In this document: one piece after another, positions 2,787 to 23,260 of the stretch | How the letters are laid out: each line of letters opens with the position of its first letter | Numbering within the stretch: position 1 is the first letter of the stretch | Source of the DNA: Savitreella phatthalungensis | Lineage: Eukaryota | Length of the DNA stretch: 23,260 bases | Reading direction: 5' to 3' | NCBI GenBank assembly: GCA_051599415.1 | Contig: AP039701.1 | Span: 434,001-457,260, forward strand | The notes under the pieces: generated by a model | Databases searched by the model: none | What the model saw: the letters and a program-made list of their open reading frames with translations, nothing else | Told to the model about the DNA's origin: nothing | Made by a program: the position numbers and the translations under genes

Positions 2787-4298
2787 ATGCTCTTTGCAAG
2801 TCTCCTCGCTCTTGCCTCAATGGCTTACGCCGCGCCGGCCGCGGTTGGAGTCGAGATTTTGCCAAAACGCGCTGTCACTGTTTACCAGACGCAGACCGTA
2901 GCGTACACTGTTATGGCGCCGGTTGCCTTCGCCACTGCGTACCCAAACACAGGAACCACTCTTACGACGTCTTCCACGAAAAGCACTGCACCGACCACGG
3001 CCCCGATGACCACGAAGACAAGTTCGACGGCTGCAGCAACAACGACAGCGCAGGTCAACACTGGCTCTAGCACCGGCGCCAAAAAGGTGTTCGCCCACTA
3101 TATGCTGGGCAATTCGTATCCGATGGGAGTCGCTGACTTCCAGGGCGAAATTGCTCGGGCGCAGGCCGCGGGAATCGATGGCTTCGCTCTGAATGTCGGG
3201 CCAGATTCCTGGATGGCGGACAGAGCGAGCAAGATGTATCAGGCAGCTATCGGCACTTCCTTCAAGCTCTTCATCTCCTTGGATATGGCAGTCATGGCGA
3301 GCAGCGCAATCCAAGATTTGACTCACTGGGTTACAGACTACTCATCGCATCCCAACCAGTACTTCTACAACAGCAAACAATTTGTCTCCACCTTTGCCGG
3401 AGAATCCGTCACTTTTGGTCAAGCTAGCGCAACAGCTGGCTGGGCTCTTTTCAAGTCAACGCTCGCTGCAAAAGGTGTCAACATCTTCTTCGTCCCCTCA
3501 TTCACCGCACTCGGTCCGACGAATGCTATGGGAATGTCTTCGAATGATGGCGCCTTCTCTTGGGATGCATGGCCAACAGGTAATAGTGCCATGTCTACCG
3601 CAGAGGATCAGGGCTACATGGCCGCTCGCAACGGCAAAGTGTACATGGCAGGAGTCTCACCATGGTTCTTCACGCACTTCAGCTACAAGAACTGGATTTA
3701 CAAATCTGATGATCTGTACACTACGCGTTGGGAGCAGCTTGTGCAGATGCAGCCCGACTTTGTGGAGATCATCACGTGGAATGACTACGGAGAATCTTCG
3801 TACATCGGTCCCATCACTGGAGCCACGCCTTACGACAGCACCATCAACTCGGCTCAGTGGGTCAACGGTCATGACCACACCGCCTGGCTCGATCTTACTG
3901 CCTACTATATTCAGGCATACAAGCAGGGCGCCTTGTTTACCCCGTCGTCAAACAAGCTTTTCATGTGGTACCGTACACAAAGCAAGAACGCCGCGGCGTC
4001 AGCAGACCCTTATGGTCAGCCGACCAATTCCAATTTCGCCAGCGACAATATCTACCTCACTGTGCTGCTCACATCGCCTGCCACCGTCACTGTCTCTCAA
4101 GGTGGACAGACACAAACTTTTGCAGGCCAGGCAGGCGTCAACAAGTTCCAGTTTGTCGGTTTCACGGCGGGCGCGGCTCCTTCTGTGACCGTCACTCGCA
4201 ACGGGGCGACAATCCTCTCGCAGTCTGGTCCTCGTTCCATCGACAGCAACCCAACCCTATACAACTACAATCCCGTTGTAGCATCTTGGTCTTTCTAA
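2787..4298 (+). CDS. Secreted GH71 endo-alpha-1,3-glucanase (mutanase/Agn1-like)
   Basis: 503-aa ORF with a signal peptide, a KR Kex2-like site and a Thr/Ser-rich linker. GH71 motifs: KKVFAHYMLGN, AQAAGIDGFALN, FKLFISLD, FVSTFAGE, YMAGVSPWFFTH, KNWIY, VEIITWNDYGESSYIGP. Confidence 0.95.
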   Translation: MLFASLLALASMAYAAPAAVGVEILPKRAVTVYQTQTVAYTVMAPVAFATAYPNTGTTLTTSSTKSTAPTTAPMTTKTSSTAAATTTAQVNTGSSTGAKKVFAHYMLGNSYPMGVADFQGEIARAQAAGIDGFALNVGPDSWMADRASKMYQAAIGTSFKLFISLDMAVMASSAIQDLTHWVTDYSSHPNQYFYNSKQFVSTFAGESVTFGQASATAGWALFKSTLAAKGVNIFFVPSFTALGPTNAMGMSSNDGAFSWDAWPTGNSAMSTAEDQGYMAARNGKVYMAGVSPWFFTHFSYKNWIYKSDDLYTTRWEQLVQMQPDFVEIITWNDYGESSYIGPITGATPYDSTINSAQWVNGHDHTAWLDLTAYYIQAYKQGALFTPSSNKLFMWYRTQSKNAAASADPYGQPTNSNFASDNIYLTVLLTSPATVTVSQGGQTQTFAGQAGVNKFQFVGFTAGAAPSVTVTRNGATILSQSGPRSIDSNPTLYNYNPVVASWSF

Positions 4299-4455
4299 GG
4301 TGTGTCAATGCTTCCAATCTGGCGCAAACGCGTTTCGCCATCCTGTTCACGTCATTCATTCAACTCTTTTTACGAAATCTATGTACCTTTAGATACTTTT
4401 CCTCAGTCATGGCGTTTCTCATCATCGATCATCCTTGATTCATGCTCGCATAGCG

Positions 4456-6075
4456 TTACATTGACAGAATGCGTTGTGCGGCGTGTTCTGCAGCAATCAT
4501 GATTCCCATCTGAGGGTTAACAGTCAGTGGCGCAACGATTGATGCATCAACCACATGGATATTCGTGGTACCAATCACGAGCGTATTGACGTCCACGCAG
4601 CTCTGTAGAGCGCACGAGGAAGACCAATGGTTGACCTGACCGACTGCATAGGGCGAAGACGTAGTGATGTACGCACGGATTTCTTCGATAGTCGCGTCCT
4701 GCCGAATGTTGAGTGGCGTAAGGTCATCTGGTAGGAAATCAAACAGTTCCCGGATGAAAGTCGCAATGTCAAGAGCATCTTGCGGATCCTGATAAAGCAC
4801 CTTGGAGCTCGAACTTTTTAACGAATCGTCAAGCACAACCTGTCCGCGGCTACGCAATCCGGAGGTGCCGTACACGTTTAGTGTCATGGTGTGGTTCGAG
4901 GTGTAGTCCTGGTAACCTGCTGTTCCCACGGTCCCTTGCAGACCGACGAGATCTGTTTGTGTGTCTGTAGTCCTGTTGATAAAGTCCCAGAACGTCACTG
5001 TCTGTCCAGCGAAGGTGTAAGGACCTGTGCGATTCTGGACGTACGCCGCTGCGTCAGCTTCTGCAACCGCATCGTAAGAATATGTGTACGAATCAATGCG
5101 CGTCGACTCAAGCTCAATGAAGGTGTTCGGGTTATCGTAGAGGCCTTGGCCTATGGCCTCGTTAACAATCCATTCATCCATCGTTTGCACGAGGACTCCT
5201 GCGGATTGGAGTTTCGACAGCTCGGTAGTAGGACCAATGCCGGAATACATGAGCAACTGCGGTGACTGTATGGCGCCGGCAGAGCTGATAACGCGACCAT
5301 TCACAGCTAGGCTGATGATTTCGCCGGAGTCCAAAACGACGCCGTCGGCAGTGCCCTGTCGTTGCGATATCCTCATGACGCGAGCGCCGGTCCGGAACCC
5401 AAAATTCTCAAGTTTGAGTGCATCTTGCAGGTAATTGGTGACGGGGCCGCCACGCTGACCACCCGAGTAGTCATAAATTGGGTGACCGAACACCTTTGAT
5501 TTTGTGTCTGCCTCGCGATTCAGATCAACTTCTGTGTAGCCAGCGCGCGTCAACCAGTCATTGGTTACATCGAAGGATGTCTGCTCGTAGCGGATACCAT
5601 CAGCGGATGTGTCGTTTGTGCTAGGCTGACGTTGCTCGAGGCGTTGTGTCGCGTTGAGCACGTCACTGCTTTGCCAACCAGATGGAAAGTAGAGGTCCCA
5701 ATCCGAAGCGGGCGGTTTAAACCACAGGCCAGCATTGATTGCTGAAGATCCGCCAACTGTGCAGCCACCATATGCCGCTGACCAGCGCTCGCAGGTCAAA
5801 TTCCCACTATTCGCGAAAATCGAATTATAGAGCCCTGGGACATCGACACGAGACAAGTTCGTATTGTCAAGCCAGCTAGGACGCTGTGTGCCGCCAGTAA
5901 CATAGTAGGACGGGCCTCCAGCTTCGAGCAGAAGCGTTCGACCTCCTGCTTCAGCTATACGTGTCGCCGCGATGATGCCTGCTGGACCAGAGCCAATCAC
6001 GATAGTGTCCCAATCGACGACGTCTCGTCGAGTCAGGGGTGCTGCGAGGGCGAGGGGTAGAATGCTGAACAACAT
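4456..6075 (-). CDS. Secreted GMC oxidoreductase, cellobiose dehydrogenase flavodomain-like (AA3_1), no cytochrome domain
   Basis: The ATG at 6075 gives the signal peptide MLFSILPLALAAP followed by LTRR. FAD motif IVIGSGPAGII, TLLLEAGGPS, SRVDVPGLYNSI, GCTVGGSSAINAGLWFKP, and C-terminal NHWSSSC and VVDASI...NPQ. The ORF track starts 17 codons earlier at 6126. Confidence 0.88.
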   Translation of the reverse strand: MLFSILPLALAAPLTRRDVVDWDTIVIGSGPAGIIAATRIAEAGGRTLLLEAGGPSYYVTGGTQRPSWLDNTNLSRVDVPGLYNSIFANSGNLTCERWSAAYGGCTVGGSSAINAGLWFKPPASDWDLYFPSGWQSSDVLNATQRLEQRQPSTNDTSADGIRYEQTSFDVTNDWLTRAGYTEVDLNREADTKSKVFGHPIYDYSGGQRGGPVTNYLQDALKLENFGFRTGARVMRISQRQGTADGVVLDSGEIISLAVNGRVISSAGAIQSPQLLMYSGIGPTTELSKLQSAGVLVQTMDEWIVNEAIGQGLYDNPNTFIELESTRIDSYTYSYDAVAEADAAAYVQNRTGPYTFAGQTVTFWDFINRTTDTQTDLVGLQGTVGTAGYQDYTSNHTMTLNVYGTSGLRSRGQVVLDDSLKSSSSKVLYQDPQDALDIATFIRELFDFLPDDLTPLNIRQDATIEEIRAYITTSSPYAVGQVNHWSSSCALQSCVDVNTLVIGTTNIHVVDASIVAPLTVNPQMGIMIAAEHAAQRILSM

Positions 6076-10613: not shown

Positions 10614-13600
10614 ATGACTGATGTTGCCAGGGCGGCACAATTCCTGCGTCTTCCTGAGGAAGCGATTCAGCAGCGCGATTGGAGTCTTGTGCTCACAGCG
10701 ATCGTGAACCGCGCGGAAGCCGTTGAGGAGCTCGAAGCTTCCGTGCTCGTTCTTACTACCGAGGCTGAGGAGCTTCGCCGAAGCAGCCGCCAAGAGACGA
10801 CAGTCGCGGATGATCGCGAGACTCCGCGAACAGATGCAAACACCGATGTGCCGGCACGTCAGTTGCAATACCAGGTAGATGAGCTCAGGCATGACAAAAC
10901 GCAGGTTATGGCACTGCTCGCGCGAGCTAATGCAACCATCACGCAGGGCGAAGATGACTACAAGGCACTATCCGATCGCTACACGGCGCTGCGTAAGGAG
11001 ACTGCGCAGTTGGAGGCCTCCTTGCACACGAGCCGCACATCCGAGCACGAAGCGACTTTAAAACGCGATCTCGCGATTCAGGAACTCGACCTCGAGAAGA
11101 AGAATGCTAAGTGGTTGACCAGCGAGCTCTCAGGTAAGGTGGATAGTTTCGCAGCGTACCGCAGTGAGGCCAGCGACAACCTTTCGAAATTGCAGCACCA
11201 ATTAGAAACGGTTCAATCCGCGCTTCTTGCTAGCGAACAGTCCAGGGAGGCGCTGCAGCGCACCTTGTCAGAACAGACTAAGCGTTTTGAGCAGGCACTC
11301 GAAGACTTAGCAGGACTGAAAGTTCAGGCTGCTGCGCGAGAGGAGAGCTTTCGTGCGGAGCTAGCCGCGCAACAACGCTTAGTCGATCTTTGGGAGCGAT
11401 CTGCAGCTGAGGCTGTTGAGCGGGCGGAACGACTGGAAGCAAAGCTTGGCAACGACGCCGAGAACGCCACTGTGCAACGCCTTCGCTCGTCTCTTGCTGA
11501 CTCACGTCAGCGTCTGACAGAGCTATCGGAACAGGTTGCGACACTACAGGCCGACCTCGAAAAGGTCAACGATGAGCTCGCCATTGCCAACGAGCGTCTT
11601 GCCATGCAGGATGCCAGTGTGCTATCGCCGACTGCACATGCCATGACGAAGCTACGTGCCGAAGGCGCTTCGATGACAGAGCTTTATACCGAGCTGCTAA
11701 AGCTCCGACAGGCACTTCAGCATGAACGCAGCAAGAATGGACGCATTCAATCCAGCTTTGACAAGCTTATTGCAGAATTGGAGGAACGAGCGCCACAGAT
11801 TCAGGAGCAACGACAAGAGTACGCGTCCATCCAGGAGGAGCTTGTGCGAATGTCGGAAGACATGCAGGAGCTCCTAGCAGAGCGTGACAAGCAGGCTCAT
11901 GTCTTGAACTCTACACAAACGAGGCTTTCTGATCGCGATCGCGAACTTTTACTACTACGCCAACAGGTTCGCGACATGTCTCGTCAAGTACAGTGCTTGG
12001 TCTTCGAAGTCGAACAAGGCGGCTTCCGCACGGCGGCTCTTACGGACGCAGAGGTCGTGCAGCTTAACCGACTACTGTCCGAGCCGGACGAGGTGAGTTC
12101 TGCAGTCGATGCCCTCATAAGTGACAGACTCGTCGTCTTTCGCAATATACAAGAGCTGCAGCAGCAGAATGCCCGCCAACTCCAAATAACTCGTCAACTT
12201 GGCGCCAAAATGGAACGAGAAGAGCAGCAAAACCGCAAGCGTGTTGAAGAGATTGAGAGTGAGCTTCTCCAGCGAGCTCAGGAGACGATTACCCGCCTCA
12301 ACAAGGAGGTCTCTGCTCTGCAAGCGCGGCTTGAAGCCAGTACTTATGAGCGCGAACTTTTCCGTAGGTTAGCGGACGGTCGTCAGGAGGCGCCGGTGGC
12401 CGCTGTCAGCAACGATGAAGGAATGAAGGCTGCTTTCGACGCCTTCAAGCTCGAGTCGAATGAAAACTATGAGGCGCTGGCCGGCCAACTCTCAAGCGCC
12501 GAAAAGGAGCGTGGAGAACTCCGGGTGCAGTGTGCTCGCGTGGAGGCGCAACTCGAGTTGGCGACAGAGCGCATCGGTCTTCTCAATGGGACGATTCAGA
12601 TGCTCCGCCAAGAGAACGAGCATGTTCGATCTCGCTACGAAGACCTACAGTCCAGCAGTGCCAAGCTCGAGGCCATGTCGCAGCAAAATACAGAAGAGCT
12701 TGCGAAGGCAAGGGCGCAGCTCAGTAGAATGACGACCGATTCCTTCAACCACCAGGGCGAAAAGCAATTGTGGAAAGCGATCGAAGCTCGAGTCACCTCG
12801 GAACTTTCAGATGTCCGTGCGGAGCGAGATAAGTTTGTCGGCACCGTGGCCTCTCTTCAAGCACGCCTGTCCGAGAGCGAGCGTCAGGAGCAGGAGGTGC
12901 GGACGAGGACCAATAAGCAGCTTGCTAACCTGCAAGAAGAGCTAACGCAAGCGAAGGTGACACTCCGGGCGGAACGAGAGGAGGTAGCACGGCTTGTATC
13001 GATGCGAGACCTAGCCGCTCGCGAGTCTGCAGCTAAGATCGAAACATTACTGAAGCAAATTGCCGACGAACGTGAAGCACAACTGCTCGCGAATGGCCAC
13101 AACTCAACGGACGCCTCTGTGGCTAACGAAGAAATGAGTCACGAGCTCCAACTGCTGCGTGCGGAACTAGAGACTGCAACACGCGAAAAGGCTCAGTACG
13201 AGCAGATCGCATCGACGGCAGAAGCTGCCTTGCGCGAGCACAATGGCGCACATGAACAATTCCTGAAGAGCATCGAGCAGGAGAAGTCGGAGCGAGAGGC
13301 GAGAAGCGCACAGCTAGAAACTCAGATTGCGCAGCTTGCATCTGAGCTTGGTACAATCAGACAGGTCGAAGAGCGGAAGCGAAGAGATATTGAGGCAGAA
13401 CTCGGCGACATGCAAGAACGGCTCACCGCCTCTGAAGATCTGGAGAAACAATATACCATGGCTACACGCTTTTATGAAGAGGATTTACGAAATCAGTCCG
13501 AGATCGCTCAGGAAGCGCATCAGAATTACGAGGCCGAACTTGTCAAGCACGCAGAGGCTGCTCAAGCTCTGCGGGCTCTTCGACACGATTACAACGAGCT

Positions 13601-15149
13601 CAAAGCGGAAAGTCTACAATTGCGCGAAAGAAGCGAGTGTTTTGATGAGCGCTTGGAGGCAGAGACTAATGCATGGGGTGAACAACGGGCACTATACGAG
13701 CGCGAGATTCGCGATTTACGGTCCAGGATCTCAGAGCTTCAGAGGCAGAATGAGGTCGTCCTCGAGCAACTTGAGGCGGTCTCCAGAACTGGAGAAATGG
13801 AACCATCAAGTTCAGATGATCAATCTCCCGCGGCGCTTGCGGAGGTGGTCAAATATCTCCGACGGGAGAAGGAGATCGTGGATGTCCGTCATGACCTGCT
13901 ACAGCAAGAACTGCGAAGGTCTAAACTCGAGATTCAGCGGTTAGAAACAGCACTCTCGACAACGACTGCTCAGCTCGCTGAGGAGCGTTCGCGCGCTGTG
14001 CAGCTCTCTGCGCAGGCACGTGAGCCCACAGATGAAGTTTCGCTGTACAAGGAGAGCAACACGGTGCTACGAAGTGAAGCTCAACAGGCATCTGCAAAGA
14101 ACATACGCCTCGAGATGAGAATCGCAGAACTTTCATCGCAACTGGAACCGCTGGAGTCTCGGGCACGCGCCATTGAGAGCGAGAGCATCGCCAAGGATGG
14201 TCAGATTGATCTACTTCGCCAGGAATGCGACCGCTGGAGACAGCGCAACCAGCAGATATTGCAAAAGTACGAGCGTATCGATCCTGATGAGTTGCAGAGC
14301 TTGAGGCAGACTGCGGAACAGCACGCAAACGAGCGTGCGCGACTCGAACGGGATCTGATCGAACGACGGGAGGCGATGGAGCAGAGCAAATCGGCGCTTG
14401 ACGCTTTACAAGCCAGGTACGAGGCATTGTCGAACCAGGTCAAGGAACGCATCAAGAAAGAGCGTGCAGCCAGTAAGGAGGCAAAGCAACAGGCCGACGC
14501 TGCCCAGGAGGAATTGACTGCTGCCAAGTCGGAGCTTGACTCCGTGAAGGTCGAACTCTCACATCTCAAGCAGCAGCATGAAGACATAAAGGCACAATCG
14601 CAAGCGCTTGCAGCAGGCCCGTCCCTCGAAAGCTTGACGCAGGAATCCGAGTCATTGAAAGCGGCTCTGACAGCCAAAGATACTGAGCTCGAAGCGCTAC
14701 ACCAGAGACTGCGACACGATTCGATCACGGGTGAGCAGTCTGACCAATTGGCGGAGGAGCTCGCAAAAATAGGCACTGAGCACGTCAACCCGGATCTCAG
14801 ACGTGTGCTCGACGAAAAAGTGGCCGAGAAGGAAGCAGAACTACGTCTCAAGTATCAGACCGCAATGCGTGACAAAGTCGACGGCCTTGTCGAGACAAGG
14901 CTTGCAACGAGGCTTGAAGCCGAGAAAGGCAAGTGGAAAATCGAGAGCGACGCAGCGAAGCAGAAAGCTGTGGAAAACACCAAGCGAGAGGTAGAGATGC
15001 GAAATAAACTCGTGCTCTCCGCGAGGGACCGCGAGATAGCGAAGCTGAAGAAAGAGGCTTCACTCGTGGTCGCCTCTGCAGACCCTGCTCATGGCAATGT
15101 TGCTACTCCTGGCTCTGACCCGGCCACTGCGACCGCTTCAGTAAACGCG

Positions 15150-15244
<95 letters not shown>

Positions 15245-15671
15245 CCCTGCTCCTGCCCCTGCTCCTGCCCCTGCTCCTGCCCCTGCTCCTGCTCCTGCTC
15301 CTGCGAACCCTTCTATTCCAGCCGATATTGATACTCAGGCTGATACGCATGCTCCCTCTACCGCGCTTGTCTCAGCAGCGATCGAAGACAGCCCGGAAAA
15401 GGCCAAAATGTCTGGCCTACTGCCGACTGGGGCCCTTGATCACACACCTGGATCGACCGCATCAGCCAACAATGCTGCACCCGAGGGTGAAGACCATGGG
15501 TCTGATGACGAACAGGGAGCGGATGTAGAAGCGGAAAATCAGAATGCACAACGCAGGCCCAAACGCGGCGGATCTCGGGGAAGGGGCAGACGCACTGGGG
15601 GCCCGACTGGCTCGAAGCGAGCACGAGACGACGCTGATGTGGCCGGCCCCGCAGCGAAGAAGGCCGCCTAG
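10614..15671 (+). CDS. MLP1: Nuclear pore basket coiled-coil protein Mlp1/Tpr/Nup211
   Basis: About 1685-aa coiled coil. Family motifs: ISDRLVVFRNIQELQQQNARQL, AQEAHQNYEAELVKHAEAAQAL, EVVKYLRREKEIVD, LYKESNTVLR, DRWRQRNQQILQKYERIDPDEL. Basic RG/NLS-like C-terminus. First ATG is 10614 (the track start is TTG). Confidence 0.92.
15150..15305 (+). repeat. Coding hexanucleotide microsatellite (CCTGCT/CCTGCC)x26 encoding (Pro-Ala)26
   Basis: Read directly: 15x CCTGCT, 4x (CCTGCC CCTGCT), 2x CCTGCT, then CCTGCG. Confidence 0.97.
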
Positions 15672-16829: not shown

Positions 16830-17151
16830 GGCTGTGACGTCTCATCGGTAGCTGTGATGAATGACAATGAATCATGTGTAATAAACGTATCGACCGCTAA
16901 GAGTGGCAATCATGTACATGACTCCTCACAGGTGCAAGAGCAGGTTGACTCCATTTGTTGATGACTAAGTTAGCACGATCGACAGAGTAGGTGAGCGCGT
17001 TCGATGTCCAGACCACTATGGTCATGGTCGAACACATGGAACAACCCACTGAACCCTGTCACAGTGACGAAAGCCTGCGCAACCGTGTTAGAAGAGACCG
17101 TGACATCACATTGCGGTATATGTACCGTGCGTCAGCGGCGCAGCACAGGCA

Positions 17152-17266
17152 GCTCCTGTGGCCAAGCAGGTTAAGGCCTCATGCTTATACGCGCATACGC
17201 AAAAAGGTTTTGACGAATCTTTTCAGGTGAACGTGAAAATCGGGAGTTCGAGCCTCCCCAGGAGCA
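17152..17266 (+). tRNA. tRNA-Ile (anticodon TAT) with a 41-nt intron at 17190-17230
   Basis: Acceptor stem GCTCCTG/CAGGAGC plus discriminator A; D arm GCC...GGC with TGGCCAAGCAGG A-box; anticodon stem TCATG/CGTGA with loop CT-TAT-A^A; T arm GGGAG-TTCGAGC-CTCCC. The intron is at the canonical 37/38 position and the mature length is 74 nt. Confidence 0.93.
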
Positions 17267-17341
17267 CATTTTGGGGATGCCGCCGATCTAACTGCACTTT
17301 TCGTCACGCTTGTTTTTGTCACTTTGCTTGTTTTGTCACGC

Positions 17342-17373
17342 TTCTCGAATTGTTGGCCGTTCTAGCCACGTTC
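17342..17373. promoter_or_regulatory. Possible heat-shock element upstream of FES1
   Basis: TTCtcGAA (17342-17349) plus further TTC units at 17360 and 17371. FES1 is an Hsf1 target in yeasts, but the spacing here is not a perfect three-unit HSE. Confidence 0.3.
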
Positions 17374-17614
17374 TCTCGCATCACCCACGATCGCTCGGCT
17401 CGTTGTCATTCCTTTCCTTCTGCGAAGCCGAGCGGCACTTTTTACCTCGCGATACTCGCGTTAAACAAGGACTGTCCAGAAGATCTCTTAAGCATCACTC
17501 GACGGTCGCTCCCTCACAAGTTTGCGGCGCCGATCGTCCTCTTTGAGTAATCAGCCTGTGCCTGAACGACGTCATCCTTGGGGACGCGGAACGGCGATAC
17601 CCGTGTGAGCGAGG

Positions 17615-18520
17615 ATGACAGATAAGCGCTCGCTCGAGCAGCTGTTGCAATTTTCCACGTCCCTTCACTCAAATAACAATGATCTGACTGCAGCGCAGGC
17701 GCGGACCGGCTCAAGGCTCGACCCTAGCGTCATCGACAGCATCATGGGACCATCTGACGCGCAGCTCATGCTAGACTCAATGAAAGCTATTGCGTCGGCT
17801 CCCTCTTCTGACGACGAGGTGATCGAGACGGCGTTCGAGAATCTTGAGGCCCTCGTCGAGCAGATTGACAATGCAAAGAATCTCAAGAACATGGGACTTT
17901 GGCCACCGCTTATCGCACAGCTGGACAGATCGCCGGTACATCGACGGGGCGCTTGTGCCGTTATTGCTGCCGCTCTGCAGAACAATCCGGAAGCACAGGA
18001 TGCATTCCTTGCGCTCGAGGGAGCACTGCAAAGAGTGCGTGGTCTCGTGCTCGACTCTGATCCAGCTGTTCGACGGAAAGCCTTATTCGCCATGACGTCA
18101 GCCGTGAGAAATAATTCCAAGGGGTTGCGAAAGCTTTCTGAAGTGGACGGGTGGAGACTATTCCTCTCCTTGCTCGACAACGATGAGCTCCGGAAGCGCA
18201 CAGTATTCTTCCTCGGCAATGTGTTTGCCCAGATTAACGACGCGGATCTCGAGCCGTCAGAGCACCTCATCCAAATCGACCAAGATCTGCTTGCGACCCT
18301 CAAACAGGTAAGGGCAGAATGTGTGCCGAAGCTCGTCAAGCTCCTTTCCCTCGATAAGGTAGTAGATGACGAAGATACCGTTGAAAAGGTTGTCCAGGCC
18401 CTCGAGACAGCCATCAAATCTGGCGAGATCAAGGTCGCAGGACTTTCCCAAGTAGCTGACCCAATCAGGCAAAGATATGGCGAGGAGATGTGTGATTGGA
18501 GCTTACTGTCATCATCATGA
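17615..18520 (+). CDS. FES1: Hsp70 nucleotide exchange factor Fes1
   Basis: LEQLLQFS, GPSDAQLMLDSM, AFENLEALVEQIDNAKNLKNMGLWPPLI, AALQNNPEAQDAF and VRRKALFAMTSAVRN form the Fes1 domain plus ARM repeats. Confidence 0.93.
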   Translation: MTDKRSLEQLLQFSTSLHSNNNDLTAAQARTGSRLDPSVIDSIMGPSDAQLMLDSMKAIASAPSSDDEVIETAFENLEALVEQIDNAKNLKNMGLWPPLIAQLDRSPVHRRGACAVIAAALQNNPEAQDAFLALEGALQRVRGLVLDSDPAVRRKALFAMTSAVRNNSKGLRKLSEVDGWRLFLSLLDNDELRKRTVFFLGNVFAQINDADLEPSEHLIQIDQDLLATLKQVRAECVPKLVKLLSLDKVVDDEDTVEKVVQALETAIKSGEIKVAGLSQVADPIRQRYGEEMCDWSLLSSS

Positions 18521-18813
18521 ACATCGCAAATTCCAACAAGACGTCGCCCAGACTCCAGACCGTACCTTACGCCCTCTGGTCTGTCGAAGTGCCGCGACGA
18601 ATGAACACAAGGCCAAATCATCGGGTGGTCGGAGCGAGCTTGCATTCGTCCATAGATTGTGTACCACAACATGCTGTAATTTCCATCAGTGAATGTGCGT
18701 TCGTGTATGCCACGTCGACACATCGATGTCGCCACTTATCAGCCGTAGTAGAGATCATCCCAAACGACCAACCTTCTTTAAGGCGCTTAATCAGATTCTT
18801 CGGGCTAGTCGCC

Positions 18814-19370
18814 GTTGCAAAGGACGATTGCTGGGCTCAAAAGAGCGACGGAGAAAGCGATCTGGACACAAACCAGACAACACCTGAGGACACACTCAAA
18901 GCTTACAGAGAGACACAGATGGCAAAACAGACACAGACTGGCACGGTCTCGCGGAGGACGAACGCGGGACCCGACAGCGACGGACAAAGCAGCACGAATA
19001 CAACCCAGATAACACAGGAGGACTCTGACGGAGCGCACTGAAGGCTACAAACGACCACAAATGCTTACAAACAAGTGGTAATAGACACAGAAGGACTACA
19101 AGAGGTTCATTTGGGCGGTGGTGCCAATCCATACTTCCCTGATATACCACAAGTCTGCTGCGGTGCTGAACGCTGCTGGCGTGTCAGGCTGGACCTAGCT
19201 ACAAGAAGACACAGCACGCCGTATGAGAAATGGCGTACAAGATATTATCAACCCCAGGACCTAGCACAGAAGAATACTATTGAATAGCTCTACACAGGAC
19301 TACCATCTTGTCGTACAGAGACTGAGCAATTGCGGAAGTAAAAGTGTCAAGAACGAGTGTATACAATCAG
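18814..19370 (+). repeat. Proximal diverged subtelomeric repeat block X-X-Y
   Basis: X copies start at ~18814 (AAGAGCGACGGAGAAAGCGA...) and 18949 (TCGCGGAGGACG...ACAGAAGGACTACAAGAG). The Y copy at ~19140-19370 shares CCAGGACCTAGCACAGAA(G/C)AATACT with the distal copies. Confidence 0.75.
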
Positions 19371-20412
19371 CACGAATCACGTGAGCGATTGTGATAGCAT
19401 TCAAGCGATGATCATCATTGCATGGAACAGAGAGCAATGTCAATATCGTTTCCGAATCCTCCAGTCTGACAGCTTTGTATCGAGTATTTACGGGTCTAAA
19501 AGCGCTGTGTACTATTTGTACACGGGTGACCCGGACAAGAGACCGGTCGCAACATCTGTAGGCACATTGACGGGATGTGCCGTCGGCATCACGCGCTGAC
19601 AGATGTCGTCGCATCAGAAAATGACGTATCCATCTCCCTCGAAGTGTATCGCTTGCAATGGCCAAGGTGCTGCCGCACGGTTCACAATACGACCTGCGAT
19701 TGACACCGCATCCGTTATCGCACGGGCACTACTGTATACACCGCAGGCAGCGAGCGCGTTTTGGTGTTGCGAAGTGTTGCTGATTCTTTCGCAATCAAGA
19801 TCACAACATGTCAGCAATGCACAGGATATTATGACAAAGATCATTTTGCGGTCTTTGTGCGCATTTGACCCGTCACATTGATTCTGCCCGGTTTGAATTG
19901 AAAGCACAAATGATCACTTTCGGGCACAAATGTTATCAAGAAATAAGTCTGCGCTGCACAACGTGTCCAATTGTCTCATTTGATGCGATATTACAAAGCG
20001 CAGTCTGTCCATCTCTACGCCGAGCCTGTTGTGGCGCACAAAGAGAGTGAATTTGCCGATATTCACAGCATCCGGGGCTGCACAAGGACTACAAATCGAC
20101 ATGGGCCGTAGTTTGACAGAAACTGCTTGCAGGATGTCAAACGCGACGAGAAAAACAAGATAGTCCTGAACCGAACAATGCAGTACGGTCCGGCACAAGA
20201 GGAAAGTCGTCACAGGGAACAGCTAAAAAAATGCGATCTTAGACAGACGTCACTATTTTGACCCGTTTCAGGAGCCTGATGTCTGATGCATACTTGCAGC
20301 TTCGAGCATCGATCGGGACCGTGCTTATCCTATATCGCGCATAACTTGGTCCCTGTCACATGCGTCGCGACACACCTTGTGCAGAGGACATGCAAAATCT
20401 TGTTCTGTTGTT

Positions 20413-20740
20413 TGTCGCGGAGGACGGCCGTAGAACCCGAGAGCGGCGGACGAAGCAACATAGACACGAGCCAGACAACCAGCAGGACACAGACGGAGTC
20501 CACCAAGGAACACAAAGAGAGATGCAAACAAGGACAAACAGATACAGAAGGACTACAAGAGACAGTCTAGGCAGTGACGCCAACTGTCGCGGAGGACGGC
20601 CGCAGGATCCGAGAGCGACGGACGAAGCGACACGGACATGAGACAGACGACACAGGAGGACCCAGACGGAGTCCACCGAGGGACACGGAGAGACACGAAC
20701 GAGCACGAACAAACACGGAGGAATCACGAGAGACAGTCTA
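20413..20740 (+). repeat. Tandem subtelomeric repeat X, two copies, period 172 bp
   Basis: TGTCGCGGAGGACGGCCG at 20413 and 20585. Both copies contain CAGACGGAGTCCACC and end in GAGACAGTCTA. Confidence 0.9.
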
Positions 20741-20745
20741 TGCGG

Positions 20746-21236
20746 GACACCGACCATGCTATATCTGATACATACCACAACTCTGCTCACGTGGCAGTTT
20801 GGTATGGGGTACAAGAGGACGCAATACGCCGTACGGAGACAGCGTGCCAGATATCAGCAACACCAGGACCTAGCACAGAACAATACTATTTGACAGCTCA
20901 ATACGGGGCTACTATCTTGTCATATGTAGACCAAGTGATTGCAGGAGTGACAGCGTTGTGTACAAACCGTATACAATCGACCTGGGCCATCGACCGGCCG
21001 TGACACCGACCATGCTATAATTGATACACACCACAACTCTGCTGACATGGCGGGTTGGTAGGGTACAAGAGGATGCAGTATGCTGCACCAAGACAGTGTG
21101 CCAGACATCTCCAACACTAGGACCTAGCACAGAACAATACTCTTTGACAGCTCTGGACAGGGCTACTATCTTACAATACATAGACTGGGTGATTCTGGAG
21201 GTGACAGCCTTGTGCACACAATTGACCCGGGCCATC
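20746..21236 (+). repeat. Tandem subtelomeric repeat Y, two copies, period 256 bp
   Basis: GACACCGACCATGCTATA at 20746 and 21002. Shared ACCACAACTCTGCT, GGGTACAAGAGGA, AGGACCTAGCACAGAACAATACT and GGGCTACTATCTT. Confidence 0.9.
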
Positions 21237-21416
21237 CAGCAGTCGCAACATTGTTAAGTGGCATTCTAGCACGCCATGAGCTCTGTAAAACCTGACCCTA
21301 ATCATGTTCTGTTCAAAAATCTTGAATTGTTTTCACTGTAGCCAGGTTATAGCCATAAAGTTTGGGATCAAAGCTCGCACGGCTTCCCTAATTGTAATTT
21401 GACAATTAAGGACACA

Positions 21417-21553
21417 CCAAACTGCATGCCAAACTGCAGAACCAAACTGCAGCGCTCCAGCAATTTGGACTTAGTTGCAGACTGCAAAACCAAACTGCAG
21501 AACAAACCTGCAGAATAAAATTGCAAAACCAGAGTGCAGCGCTCAACAAATTT
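21417..21553 (+). repeat. Degenerate ~12-13 bp minisatellite (CCAAACTGCAGAA-like)
   Basis: About 8 AACTGCA-type cores in tandem, with two higher-order ends TGCAGCGCTC(C/A)(AG/A)CAA(A)TTT. Confidence 0.75.
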
Positions 21554-21567
21554 GTAGCATGCCCACA

Positions 21568-21598
<31 letters not shown>

Positions 21599-21634
21599 GT
21601 AGTTGTGATGGTAGTAGCAGCAGTAGCAGCAGCA
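21568..21634 (+). repeat. (CAG/TAG)n trinucleotide microsatellite
   Basis: AGCAGCAGTAGCAGCAGC... interrupted by TTGTGATGG. Confidence 0.85.
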
Positions 21635-22299
21635 TTTGTAACAGCGTTATAATGAGTGAAAATAATGGGAGGAGTAGGAAGTATGTTAGCCGTAGCAGTC
21701 ATCACAGTCAATAAAGCACAGACTATGTAGGAGAATGAGGCATGCAAAAAGCACAGACCAGCGCAGTCGAAGCAGAGTAGACAGTGTACAATGCATGACA
21801 GGGTATAGTAAATGTGACAGTGCACAAGCCAGGCAATAGGAGCAAGTGAGAGTGAGTTAGAGTGAGTTGTGAAGGAAAGGACACAGCACAGTGCAAGCAA
21901 TGGATTTGACAAGCAACAGTGGAGGAAACAGTGCATGCCAAATGACATTGCAGTCAATTGCACTTAATTGATGTTGCACAACAGGCGCCAGTGCCAATTA
22001 CAGTCCAAGGAATGAGAATGCAGGCAACAGGGTAGTGCACAGCCAAGCAGGTGGTGTTTATAACAAGCAGAGACAGAGTCAGTGGCAGGGCCAGGTGTTC
22101 AAATGACAAGTGATAGTGCAGGAATGATATATCAAGTGATGTTGCGGTGTTTAACATATGGCAGTGCAGTGATGAGACAAGGTACAGTGCGGGCTACAAG
22201 TGTGTGATACACAACAGGGGTTGACAGGTCAACAGCAGTTGGCCGATCCAGGGTTTGACAAATGCCAGGTCACAGAGCAGGGCAATGAGGCAAGTAGTA

Positions 22300-22712
22300 G
22301 CGCAGGTGATGGTATTTGAGAGATGATGACACAAGTGACAGTGCAGATAGCACCAGGTGACAGATGATGGTGCAGGCAACAGCACATGGCAGACAACAGT
22401 GCAGATAACAGGATTTGAAGGAGACCAGGCAGGTAACAACATTTGACAGAGACAGGGCAGATGACAGCATGTGGGGGTTACAGGGTGTGTGATGGCAATT
22501 GAGAGATGGCAGTGCAGGTGTTGGGATTGATGCGTGATTTTGACAGTTGATGGGATTTGGCAGGTGATGGCATTTGCCAGGCGGCAGGGCGGATAACAAT
22601 ATTGGATAAGTGGCAGTTCAGGTAACAGCATGTGACAGGTGACAGGTGACATACCGATAACAGCATTTGGCATTTGGCAGGTGACGGTGCAGTTTCAGAT
22701 GAAACAGATGGT
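22300..22712 (+). repeat. Degenerate array of an ~18-bp motif, consensus near GGCAGGTGACAGCATTTG
   Basis: Variants include GCAGGTGATGGTATTTG, GCAGATAACAGGATTTG, GGCAGGTAACAACATTTG, GGCAGATGACAGCATGTG, GGCAGGTGATGGCATTTG, GGCGGATAACAATATTG, CAGGTAACAGCATGTG and CCGATAACAGCATTTG. Confidence 0.7.
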
Positions 22713-22938
22713 AGGGTTTTTAAAAGTAGAAATGAGGGGAGCAAATGGCATGGGATGTATTGGGTGAACGGGGGAAGAGTGTCAGATAGATGAGGGATTG
22801 AGAGCAGGAGTACAGCGGAGAGAGGAGCAGCAAGGGCACAGCAAGATGATGGTGATGTTGAAGACCAGCAGGGGCGTATGCGTGCGGACAAGCGTAGTGT
22901 AGCAAGGCAGCAGGGGTGAGCAGAGAAACAAGGTTAGG

Positions 22939-22979
22939 AAGCAAGCAAGCGAGCAAGCAAGCGAGCAAAGCGGAGCAAG
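22939..22979 (+). repeat. (GCAA/GCGA)n tetranucleotide microsatellite
   Basis: AAGCAAGCAAGCGAGCAAGCAAGCGAGCAAAGCGGAGCAAG. Confidence 0.75.
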
Positions 22980-23019
22980 GGTTGGGGCATTGGTTAGTTT
23001 GATGTTGGTTAGTTTTTGT

Positions 23020-23045
23020 GGGTCAGGGTGAGGGTCAGGGTGAGG
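23020..23045 (+). repeat. Telomere variant repeats (TCAGGG/TGAGGG)
   Basis: GGGTCAGGGTGAGGGTCAGGGTGAGG lies just proximal to the canonical tract. Confidence 0.8.
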
Positions 23046-23057
23046 CAGCAAGAAAAC

Positions 23058-23187
23058 AGGGTTAGGGTTAGGGTTAGGGTTAGGGTTAGGGTTAGGGTTA
23101 GGGTTAGGGTTAGGGTTAGGGTTAGGGTTAGGGTTAGGGTTAGGGTTAGGGTTAGGGTTAGGGTTAGGGTTAGGGTTAGGGTTAGGG
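23058..23187 (+). repeat. Telomere, (TTAGGG)21
   Basis: 21 perfect TTAGGG units at 23062-23187, preceded by AGGG. The G-rich strand runs 5'->3' toward the end, as expected for a right chromosome end. Confidence 0.97.
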
Positions 23188-23260
23188 TTCTCGCAAAGGC
23201 AGAAAGTAGTCTTAACCTTAGCAATACGTAACTGAACCTTAGACTTACGAACTGAACAGG
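23188..23260 (+). other. Sequencing artefact: Oxford Nanopore barcode 06 plus native-barcode flank plus ligation adapter
   Basis: TTCTCGCAAAGGCAGAAAGTAGTC (23188-23211) is ONT BC06/NB06 as recalled. It is followed by the flank TTAACCTT (23212-23219) and AGCAATACGTAACTGAAC (23220-23237), the reverse complement of the ONT adapter end GTTCAGTTACGTATTGCT. Confidence 0.93.

Follow-up and report, generated by a model that had tools for sequence, protein, structure and literature searches.

The centromeres of the basidiomycete Cryptococcus neoformans contain Tcn LTR retrotransposons that are CG-methylated by Dnmt5 (PMC5866544, 10.1101/149385). In Saccharomycotina, Ty5 clusters mark centromeres, including the 1.2-kb clusters of Saccharomycodes ludwigii (10.1101/2025.04.25.647736). 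The transposable elements (TEs) of Pucciniomycotina show a "RIP-like" hypermutation at TpCpG (PMC3318451, PMC4352252), and fission yeasts harbor the Tf1/sushi chromoviruses (10.1101/2022.12.06.519325, PMC4600332). In Taphrinomycotina, centromeres have been described in fission yeasts and Pneumocystis only; to infer the ancestral state would, according to the Pneumocystis study, require additional species (10.1101/2023.05.12.540427). The same subphylum is scored as having no RIP footprint in the surveys cited here (PMC7882544, PMC3648899).

We analyzed a 23,260-nucleotide stretch of Savitreella phatthalungensis DNA (the window) at the right end of contig C13 (C13:434001-457260), in a genome of 12.7 Mb and 27 contigs. 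An earlier note on this DNA had described repeat copies that diverge by CpG transitions and had suspected an affinity with Taphrinomycotina; the latter agrees with the database label, Taphrinales, and with the best named matches of a gene in the window, which are from Taphrina and Protomyces. The repeats prove to belong to retrotransposon islands with CpG decay, which might be regarded as a variant on the Cryptococcus Tcn/Dnmt5, Ty5-cluster and Pucciniomycotina TCG themes; they do not show the marks of Neurospora RIP.

Nested solo LTRs and their parent retrotransposon

The earlier note had treated the repeat units X and Y as subtelomeric repeats. They are not two tandem families but the halves of solo LTRs of one retrotransposon, a younger LTR being nested in an older one (Table 1). 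The old LTR (X2+Y2) spans 20413-21250, has termini similar to those of X3+Y1 and is flanked by TTGTT on both sides; X2 ends in the 5 bases CCAAC; this left target duplication, produced by the nested insertion, carries a CpG to CpA change. Compared with the intact LTR found on contig C23 (see below), X3+Y1 shows 42 differences, with 14 CpG losses and 1 gain, and X1+Y0 has diverged by ~25% at non-CpG sites. The nesting, the target duplications and the existence of internal islands on other chromosomes rule out a reading as subtelomeric tandem repeats. The strongest CpG loss of the window (observed/expected ratio, o/e, 0.27) is found at 21256-23057, beyond the region that the earlier note had considered.

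Table 1. Repeat features at the right end of the window (positions in the window)
Feature	Position	Strand	Evidence
Decayed LTR, 5' fragment; left edge of the island	18814..18945	+	nhmmer model positions 2-133, E=2e-13
X1+Y0, oldest near-complete LTR of the island; ends approximate	18947..19395	+	nhmmer 18949-19368, E=5e-88; alignment to intact LTR
Left 5-bp target-site duplication of old solo LTR, TTGTT	20408..20412	+	
X2, left part of old solo LTR	20413..20584	+	
X3+Y1, younger solo LTR, 421 bp, termini TGTC...GACA, nested in old LTR	20585..21005	+	
Y2, right part of old solo LTR; opens with right target duplication CCGAC	21006..21250	+	
Right 5-bp target-site duplication of old solo LTR, TTGTT	21251..21255	+	
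True subtelomeric repeat family, common to most chromosome ends	21256..23057	.	105 matches at contig ends
Telomere repeat (TTAGGG) x22	23058..23189	+	

Among 40 LTR copies with both termini, 12 have a perfect target duplication, 5 have one with a single mismatch and 23 have none. A CpG change accounts for 1 of the 5 mismatches, which we count against the methylation and deamination discussed below; use of these mismatches as a neutral clock was dropped, five being too few.

The intact Ty3/gypsy parent lies at C23:220681-227390. Its 424-bp LTRs are identical except at one base (CpG/CpA), its target duplication is CCCAT, and it contains gag, a 1172-aa frame with protease, RVT_1, RNaseH and rve domains (Pfam), and a purine tract. 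A chromodomain (PF00385) is matched at E=0.0012 and 19.2 bits, under the cut-off of 25.1. Bases 3-13 past the 5' LTR are complementary, over 11 nt, to LTR position 263, and this complement is paired in the MFE fold; the primer site appears to be of the self-priming type. The Gag, the PR-RT-RH-IN order, the ~400-bp LTRs (TGTC..GACA), the 5-bp target duplications and such a primer site are all shared with the Tf1/sushi elements as these are described, and the C-terminal end may be chromodomain-like, as it is in them. In the same descriptions, Tf1 and Tf2 target promoters, Tj1 targets Pol III genes and the LTRs of S. osmophilus are without regional enrichment. The Savitreella family differs from them in its distribution, nearly all of it lying in one island per chromosome, and in having an additional antisense ORF. 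This 430-aa frame occupies the interval from pol to the 3' LTR (3560-4852 (-) of the examined piece), contains a cysteine cluster and matches no Pfam family; partial relatives occur at C7:525.5-525.9k, and its top Atlas match (0.91), to a cluster of which 29% of the members have DUF8257, is a lead only. A genome search found no second long copy of the internal region of the C23 element, except for 375 bases in the C7 island.

Other gypsy elements reside in the chromosome arms. Several of these are full-length, the short LTRs (112-164 bp) of each being identical, and they have a tRNA-type primer site in common. Since a chromodomain is present in 3/3 arm elements tested, the chromodomain does not explain targeting to the islands, and it is unsupported as a cause.

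Because nesting, target duplications and an intact parent are seen in the sequence, we infer that one Ty3/gypsy family inserts repeatedly at one small site on each chromosome and often lands in its own older LTRs. Recombination between LTRs would then remove the internal region and leave stacked solo LTRs.

Two further features of the window may be recorded here. A tRNA-Gln gene with an intron (17152-17266) is missed unless intron mode is used, and a perfect (Pro-Ala)n hexamer run of 26 copies (15150-15304) lies near the end of a coiled-coil ORF of 1685 aa (10614-15671), which is presumably Mlp1/Tpr-like.

LTR islands as candidate centromeres

In the whole genome, BLAST gave 85 matches to the LTR family, which form a single cluster on each of 27/27 contigs; a profile search recovered 150 LTR pieces, and the islands measure 0.6-4.2 kb and are of mixed orientation. 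Fifteen islands lie 19-533 kb from the nearest contig end and 12 within about 10 kb of it. The description of the repeats as subtelomeric could thus not be upheld: the family forms one island per chromosome, mostly distant from telomeres. At the ends of the 11 chromosomes with internal islands, the profile found no LTR piece (0/22 scanned ends, the right stretch scanned on C8 being 603-610 kb and not its last 7 kb). The ends of C21, C22, C25 and C27 and the far ends of the 11 chromosomes with terminal islands were searched by BLAST and patterns only, which gives lower bounds. Two exhaustive motif searches had 61/66 and 47/53 of their matches within islands. Beyond them were 5/66 (control 2) and 6/53 (control 8), and nhmmer found no LTR at 10 of these 11, the remaining one being a lone LTR on C17. 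The ORF-free gaps at islands have a median of 4.2 kb (25 measurable) vs 0.43 kb in the arms. GC falls only slightly at the islands (0.46-0.52 vs 0.525; 0.467 in the non-LTR interior), and no non-LTR core common to all islands was found. Targeting to tRNA genes is ruled out, since such genes are close to just 1/27 islands.

Contig C2 consists of two telomere-capped segments with a head-to-head junction. A non-genomic tail identical to the one that follows the telomere repeat in the window (23190-23260) occurs at another contig end and at about 311,110-311,160 of C2; we take it to be a nanopore barcode or adapter. C2 is probably two misjoined chromosomes, so the genome would have ~28. The full island predicted on the 311-kb segment C2:1-311k was not found: LTR sequence on this segment amounts to just ~170 bp of scraps close to one end, with a weak match close to the other. 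There is therefore one island on each of 27/28 putative chromosomes, and lone LTRs occur outside islands at C17:3.6k and C14:88.3k. Telomeres are listed for C1-C3 only and are elsewhere deduced from the subtelomeric repeats.

A single site per chromosome that is independent of the telomeres suggests a centromere, and this layout makes it probable that the LTR islands, as candidates, do mark the centromeres. The scraps on C2:1-311k, the lone LTRs, the small GC dip and the position of 12/27 islands near ends count against it. Alternatively, the islands could be graveyards of retrotransposons that perpetuate themselves in tolerated heterochromatin and have no relation to centromeres. The nested LTRs show that LTRs draw further insertions, and the 12 near-end islands, the one island-less segment and the two lone LTRs would also be understandable on such grounds. 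A graveyard would, however, require a landmark that occurs once per chromosome (27 islands on 27/28 chromosomes, p about 3e-10 under uniform placement), and it is at odds with the empty ends of the internal-island chromosomes (0/22) and the lack of a tRNA link; we consider this explanation rather unlikely.

As candidate centromeres, the islands would be like those of C. neoformans in that LTR retroelements, mostly remnants, rarely occur outside one region on each chromosome, and in the company of DNMT5, a CG methyltransferase. The regions described in that basidiomycete are far longer (630 kb altogether, the Savitreella islands adding up to ~70 kb), and methylation and CENP-A were measured there. 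The accounts of C. neoformans cited above describe it as being without a second DNMT, whereas the Savitreella genome has a RID/Masc1-like gene. The described Ty5 centromeres are closer in size, each being a single compact cluster of diverged LTRs per chromosome, but they are AT-rich with CDE elements, whereas the islands of Savitreella are Ty3/gypsy, with a GC of ~0.49 and no common non-LTR core found. Unlike the Ty5-cluster Saccharomycotina, the Savitreella lineage has DNMT5, Pre-SET and Argonaute genes. Ty5 is an element of the copia type.

Islands are near-terminal on 8/11 chromosomes shorter than 300 kb and internal on most large chromosomes, a pattern that centric fission or fusion would give. 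The C4 island (C4:468.2-470.4k) consists of LTR pieces in an inverted duplication. A second, diverged repeat of ~340 bp is present in eight islands (C1, C5, C9, C17, C19, C21, C22 and C27) and was not found in the scanned ends or in C2:1-320k; it is perhaps an older island-targeting element.

CpG transitions in LTR copies and other compartments

The nine word pairs from which the earlier note had argued are all at homologous positions of the window (9/9), and the CpG-context excess that it suspected is borne out by a formal count: between the young (X3, Y1) and old (X2, Y2) copies, transitions affect 19/66 CpG vs 17/162 other C/G positions (Fisher p=0.0011). The direction, CpG to TpG/CpA as had been proposed, is explained by age: the older copy, X2/Y2, has lost 19 CpG positions and created 4 (binomial p=0.0026). 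From young to old, CpG dinucleotides go from 20 to 11 in X and from 14 to 4 in Y; the CpG o/e of Y2 is 0.26.

The same spectrum is seen in the family as a whole. When 120 pieces were compared with the intact LTR (both intact C23 LTRs having been excluded beforehand), transitions were found at 1734/6560 CpG (26.4%), 260/3531 CpA (7.4%), 441/3727 CpC and 269/3447 CpT positions, that is, at 7.4-11.8% for non-CpG C, while CpG transversions were not elevated (0.028 vs 0.047-0.051). When CpG columns were left out of the tree, parsimony counted 9.0 changes per CpG site vs 2.8-3.5, with TCG the highest and CpA the lowest class, and the ranking in the island LTR copies is TCG 0.33, CCG 0.18, ACG 0.12 and GCG 0.09. 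The CpA values agree with the view of the earlier note that Neurospora-type RIP (CpA to TpA) is not at work. With sites as replicates, 31 young copies show a 4.3-fold CpG excess (p=3e-16) and 32 old copies a 2.3-fold one; one arm of the C4 inverted duplication, gap-adjacent columns and sites with the reference base in <30% of copies (12-19 per set) were excluded from these counts. CpG loss rises with non-CpG divergence (Spearman 0.52, 62 copies), and the CpG rate exceeds a copy's own non-CpG rate in 58/62 long copies. There is no strand heterogeneity between copies (chi2=56, df=60, p=0.61), both strands being affected.

Other pairs of sequences were counted in the same manner. The C7 island copy differs from the intact element at 24/146 CpG vs 7/312 other positions, with a direction of 23:1 and TCG at 16/24 (p=7e-5). 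Near-identical, unlinked 6-kb duplicates of a second gypsy family in the arms give 16/858 vs 8/2310, with TCG at 12/16 (p=3e-4), and odds ratios in young near-identical pairs are 5-9. The excess is absent in one old pair (23/98 vs 37/147, p=0.88) and in one subterminal gene-like duplication (7/313 vs 32/929). The CpG o/e is 0.27 in the subtelomeric repeats, where depletion is strongest at TCG, 0.81 in the island LTRs (1.31 in the intact LTR) and 1.05 in ORFs. In 52.7 kb of non-ORF arm and intergenic DNA it is 0.93, and TCG is not deficient (P(G|TC)=0.214 vs G 0.236). Synonymous sites show a mild avoidance of CpG (C before G 0.44 vs 0.56, 0.57 vs 0.65 and 0.68 vs 0.77).

Such differences might come from base-calling errors at methylated or otherwise difficult CpG sites of a nanopore assembly, a type of assembly to which the identical tail at the window end and the C2 junction, presumably a barcode or adapter, would point. 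Contigs of a public run (X1, depth 82-88), whose library and chemistry are not on record and which possibly comes from the assembly's own sample, show 0 differences from the window over 17000-20513, 20485-20638, 20977-21148 and 21120-21561. These stretches take in the whole old copy; 20639-20976 of the young copy is collapsed with other copies in the contigs of that run. Since the old copy is matched base for base, the loss tracks copy age inside one locus and long ORFs are intact, this explanation is largely refuted, and we give it hardly any weight. In a second run (X2, library not on record), the contig depth is, unlike in X1, very uneven (342 at 17196-19858, 3-5 at 19915-20638).

Methyltransferase genes and the cause of CpG loss

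A genome search with PF00145 gave 3 matches in 2 genes. The first gene encodes a DNMT5 of 2082 aa in an open frame, with methylase, SNF2 and helicase C domains and intact catalytic and ATPase motifs; no Pfam chromodomain was matched in it. It matches PDB 7r76 (an entry named Rad8) at 1362 bits, and we take this entry to be Cryptococcus Dnmt5. Among the best 120 of its 1147 matches, Saitoella is the only other Taphrinomycotina name. The closest relatives of the second methylase, of 487 aa, are Pezizomycotina methylases of 566-752 aa with which it has N-terminal blocks in common and none of which is labelled RID; it reads as RID/Masc1-like, an assignment that we base, presumptively, on its motif-VI variant. 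Of the enzymes for which the earlier note had suggested a search, DNMT5 and a RID/Masc1-like gene are thus present, and DNMT1 and DIM-2 were not found among the 3 PF00145 matches in an exon-wise search. Genes for heterochromatin and RNAi comprise one Pre-SET and one Argonaute (Piwi). The contrast with unmethylated S. pombe, on which the note had dwelt, is less surprising than it supposed, DNA methyltransferases having already been reported in Saitoella and Neolecta (10.1101/2023.05.12.540427); T. deformans is listed with UHRF1 and DNMT4 and without DNMT1 in another source (10.1101/2023.01.30.526367).

We infer that an inserted copy is CpG-methylated as repeat heterochromatin, the methylation being kept up by DNMT5 and probably established by the RID/Masc1-like enzyme. 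Deamination of 5-methylcytosine to T on either strand would then cause a steady CpG loss with copy age. The same process would act on the subtelomeric repeats and young arm retrotransposons, and little on ordinary intergenic DNA. We favor this repeat-directed methylation with slow deamination, as a reasonably likely account of the sequence data, because the CpG loss is gradual, two-stranded, transition-only and compartment-specific. Several observations weigh against it: the old pair and the subterminal duplication without a CpG excess, the lack of a Pfam chromodomain match in DNMT5, and the sequence preferences considered in the following two explanations.

In the first of these, a RID/Masc1-like enzyme would recognize duplications around the sexual cycle and convert TCG to TTG, directly or via transient methylation, an active RIP-like process of the kind proposed for Pucciniomycotina (PMC3318451). 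The TCG preference observed here matches the signature reported in that group, where, as in Savitreella, TEs show C to T change at CpG with TCG preferred. The system described in these basidiomycetes is, however, strictly TpCpG and is associated with a Masc2-type DNMT1 and no RID, whereas Savitreella is an ascomycete with DNMT5, a RID-like gene and a graded context. Three data sets put TCG first among the contexts (0.33 vs 0.18/0.12/0.09; 16/24; 12/16), the genome does encode a RID/Masc1-like protein, the unlinked 6-kb arm duplicates are affected and the subtelomeric repeats are most depleted at TCG. Strand-biased bursts in individual copies, however, are not seen (p=0.61), the loss is gradual and correlated with age, CCG and ACG are elevated too while CpA is not, and several retrotransposons are still intact with identical LTRs. 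We regard an active process of this type as unlikely.

Secondly, CCG/TCG could be hypermutable throughout the genome, independently of methylation, and be seen to be so only where selection is absent. Mutation-accumulation lines of yeast point in this direction, in that C mutation is raised at CCG/TCG in S. cerevisiae and at CCG/GCG in S. pombe, both without methylation (PMC4704713), and so does the mild avoidance of CpG at synonymous sites. Such hypermutability should not spare the 52.7 kb of non-ORF DNA, where the o/e is 0.93 and TCG shows no deficit, vs 0.27 in the subtelomeric repeats. CpG transversions are not elevated, unlike in the C to A pattern of the S. pombe data as reported (PMC4704713); the odds ratios of 5-9 in young pairs and the intact DNMT5 also speak against it. 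We think this explanation improbable, and retain methylation followed by deamination as the preferred one.

Taken as a whole, we can only tentatively propose, and would not quite expect every part to hold, that the genome has ~28 minimal centromeres of 1-4 kb made of the solo LTRs of one intact, centromere-targeting element, and that TCG-biased methylation of these and other repeats by DNMT5 and the RID-like enzyme, the latter acting de novo, would let erosion of centromeric DNA by the host compete with renewal by insertion. The literature searched, subscription papers aside, yielded no account of this element, of centromeres or of methylation for the genus Savitreella. The analysis supplies sequence evidence that CpG mutation is directed at repeats in a subphylum to which surveys assign no RIP footprint; if the tentative proposal above is true, the verdict that Taphrinomycotina have no RIP-like process stems from indices that consider only CpA. 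The natural pair of a DNMT5 and a RID-like gene, without DNMT1 or DIM-2, offers a system in which the TCG signature could be assigned to an enzyme and a role of RID/Masc1 as the de novo partner of DNMT5 could be examined. The candidate centromeres carry a larger value than the CpG decay alone: they provide 27 sets of coordinates in a culturable yeast and, if they are centromeres, compact LTR-cluster centromeres would have arisen independently outside Saccharomycotina, in a lineage that retains H3K9 and RNAi genes.
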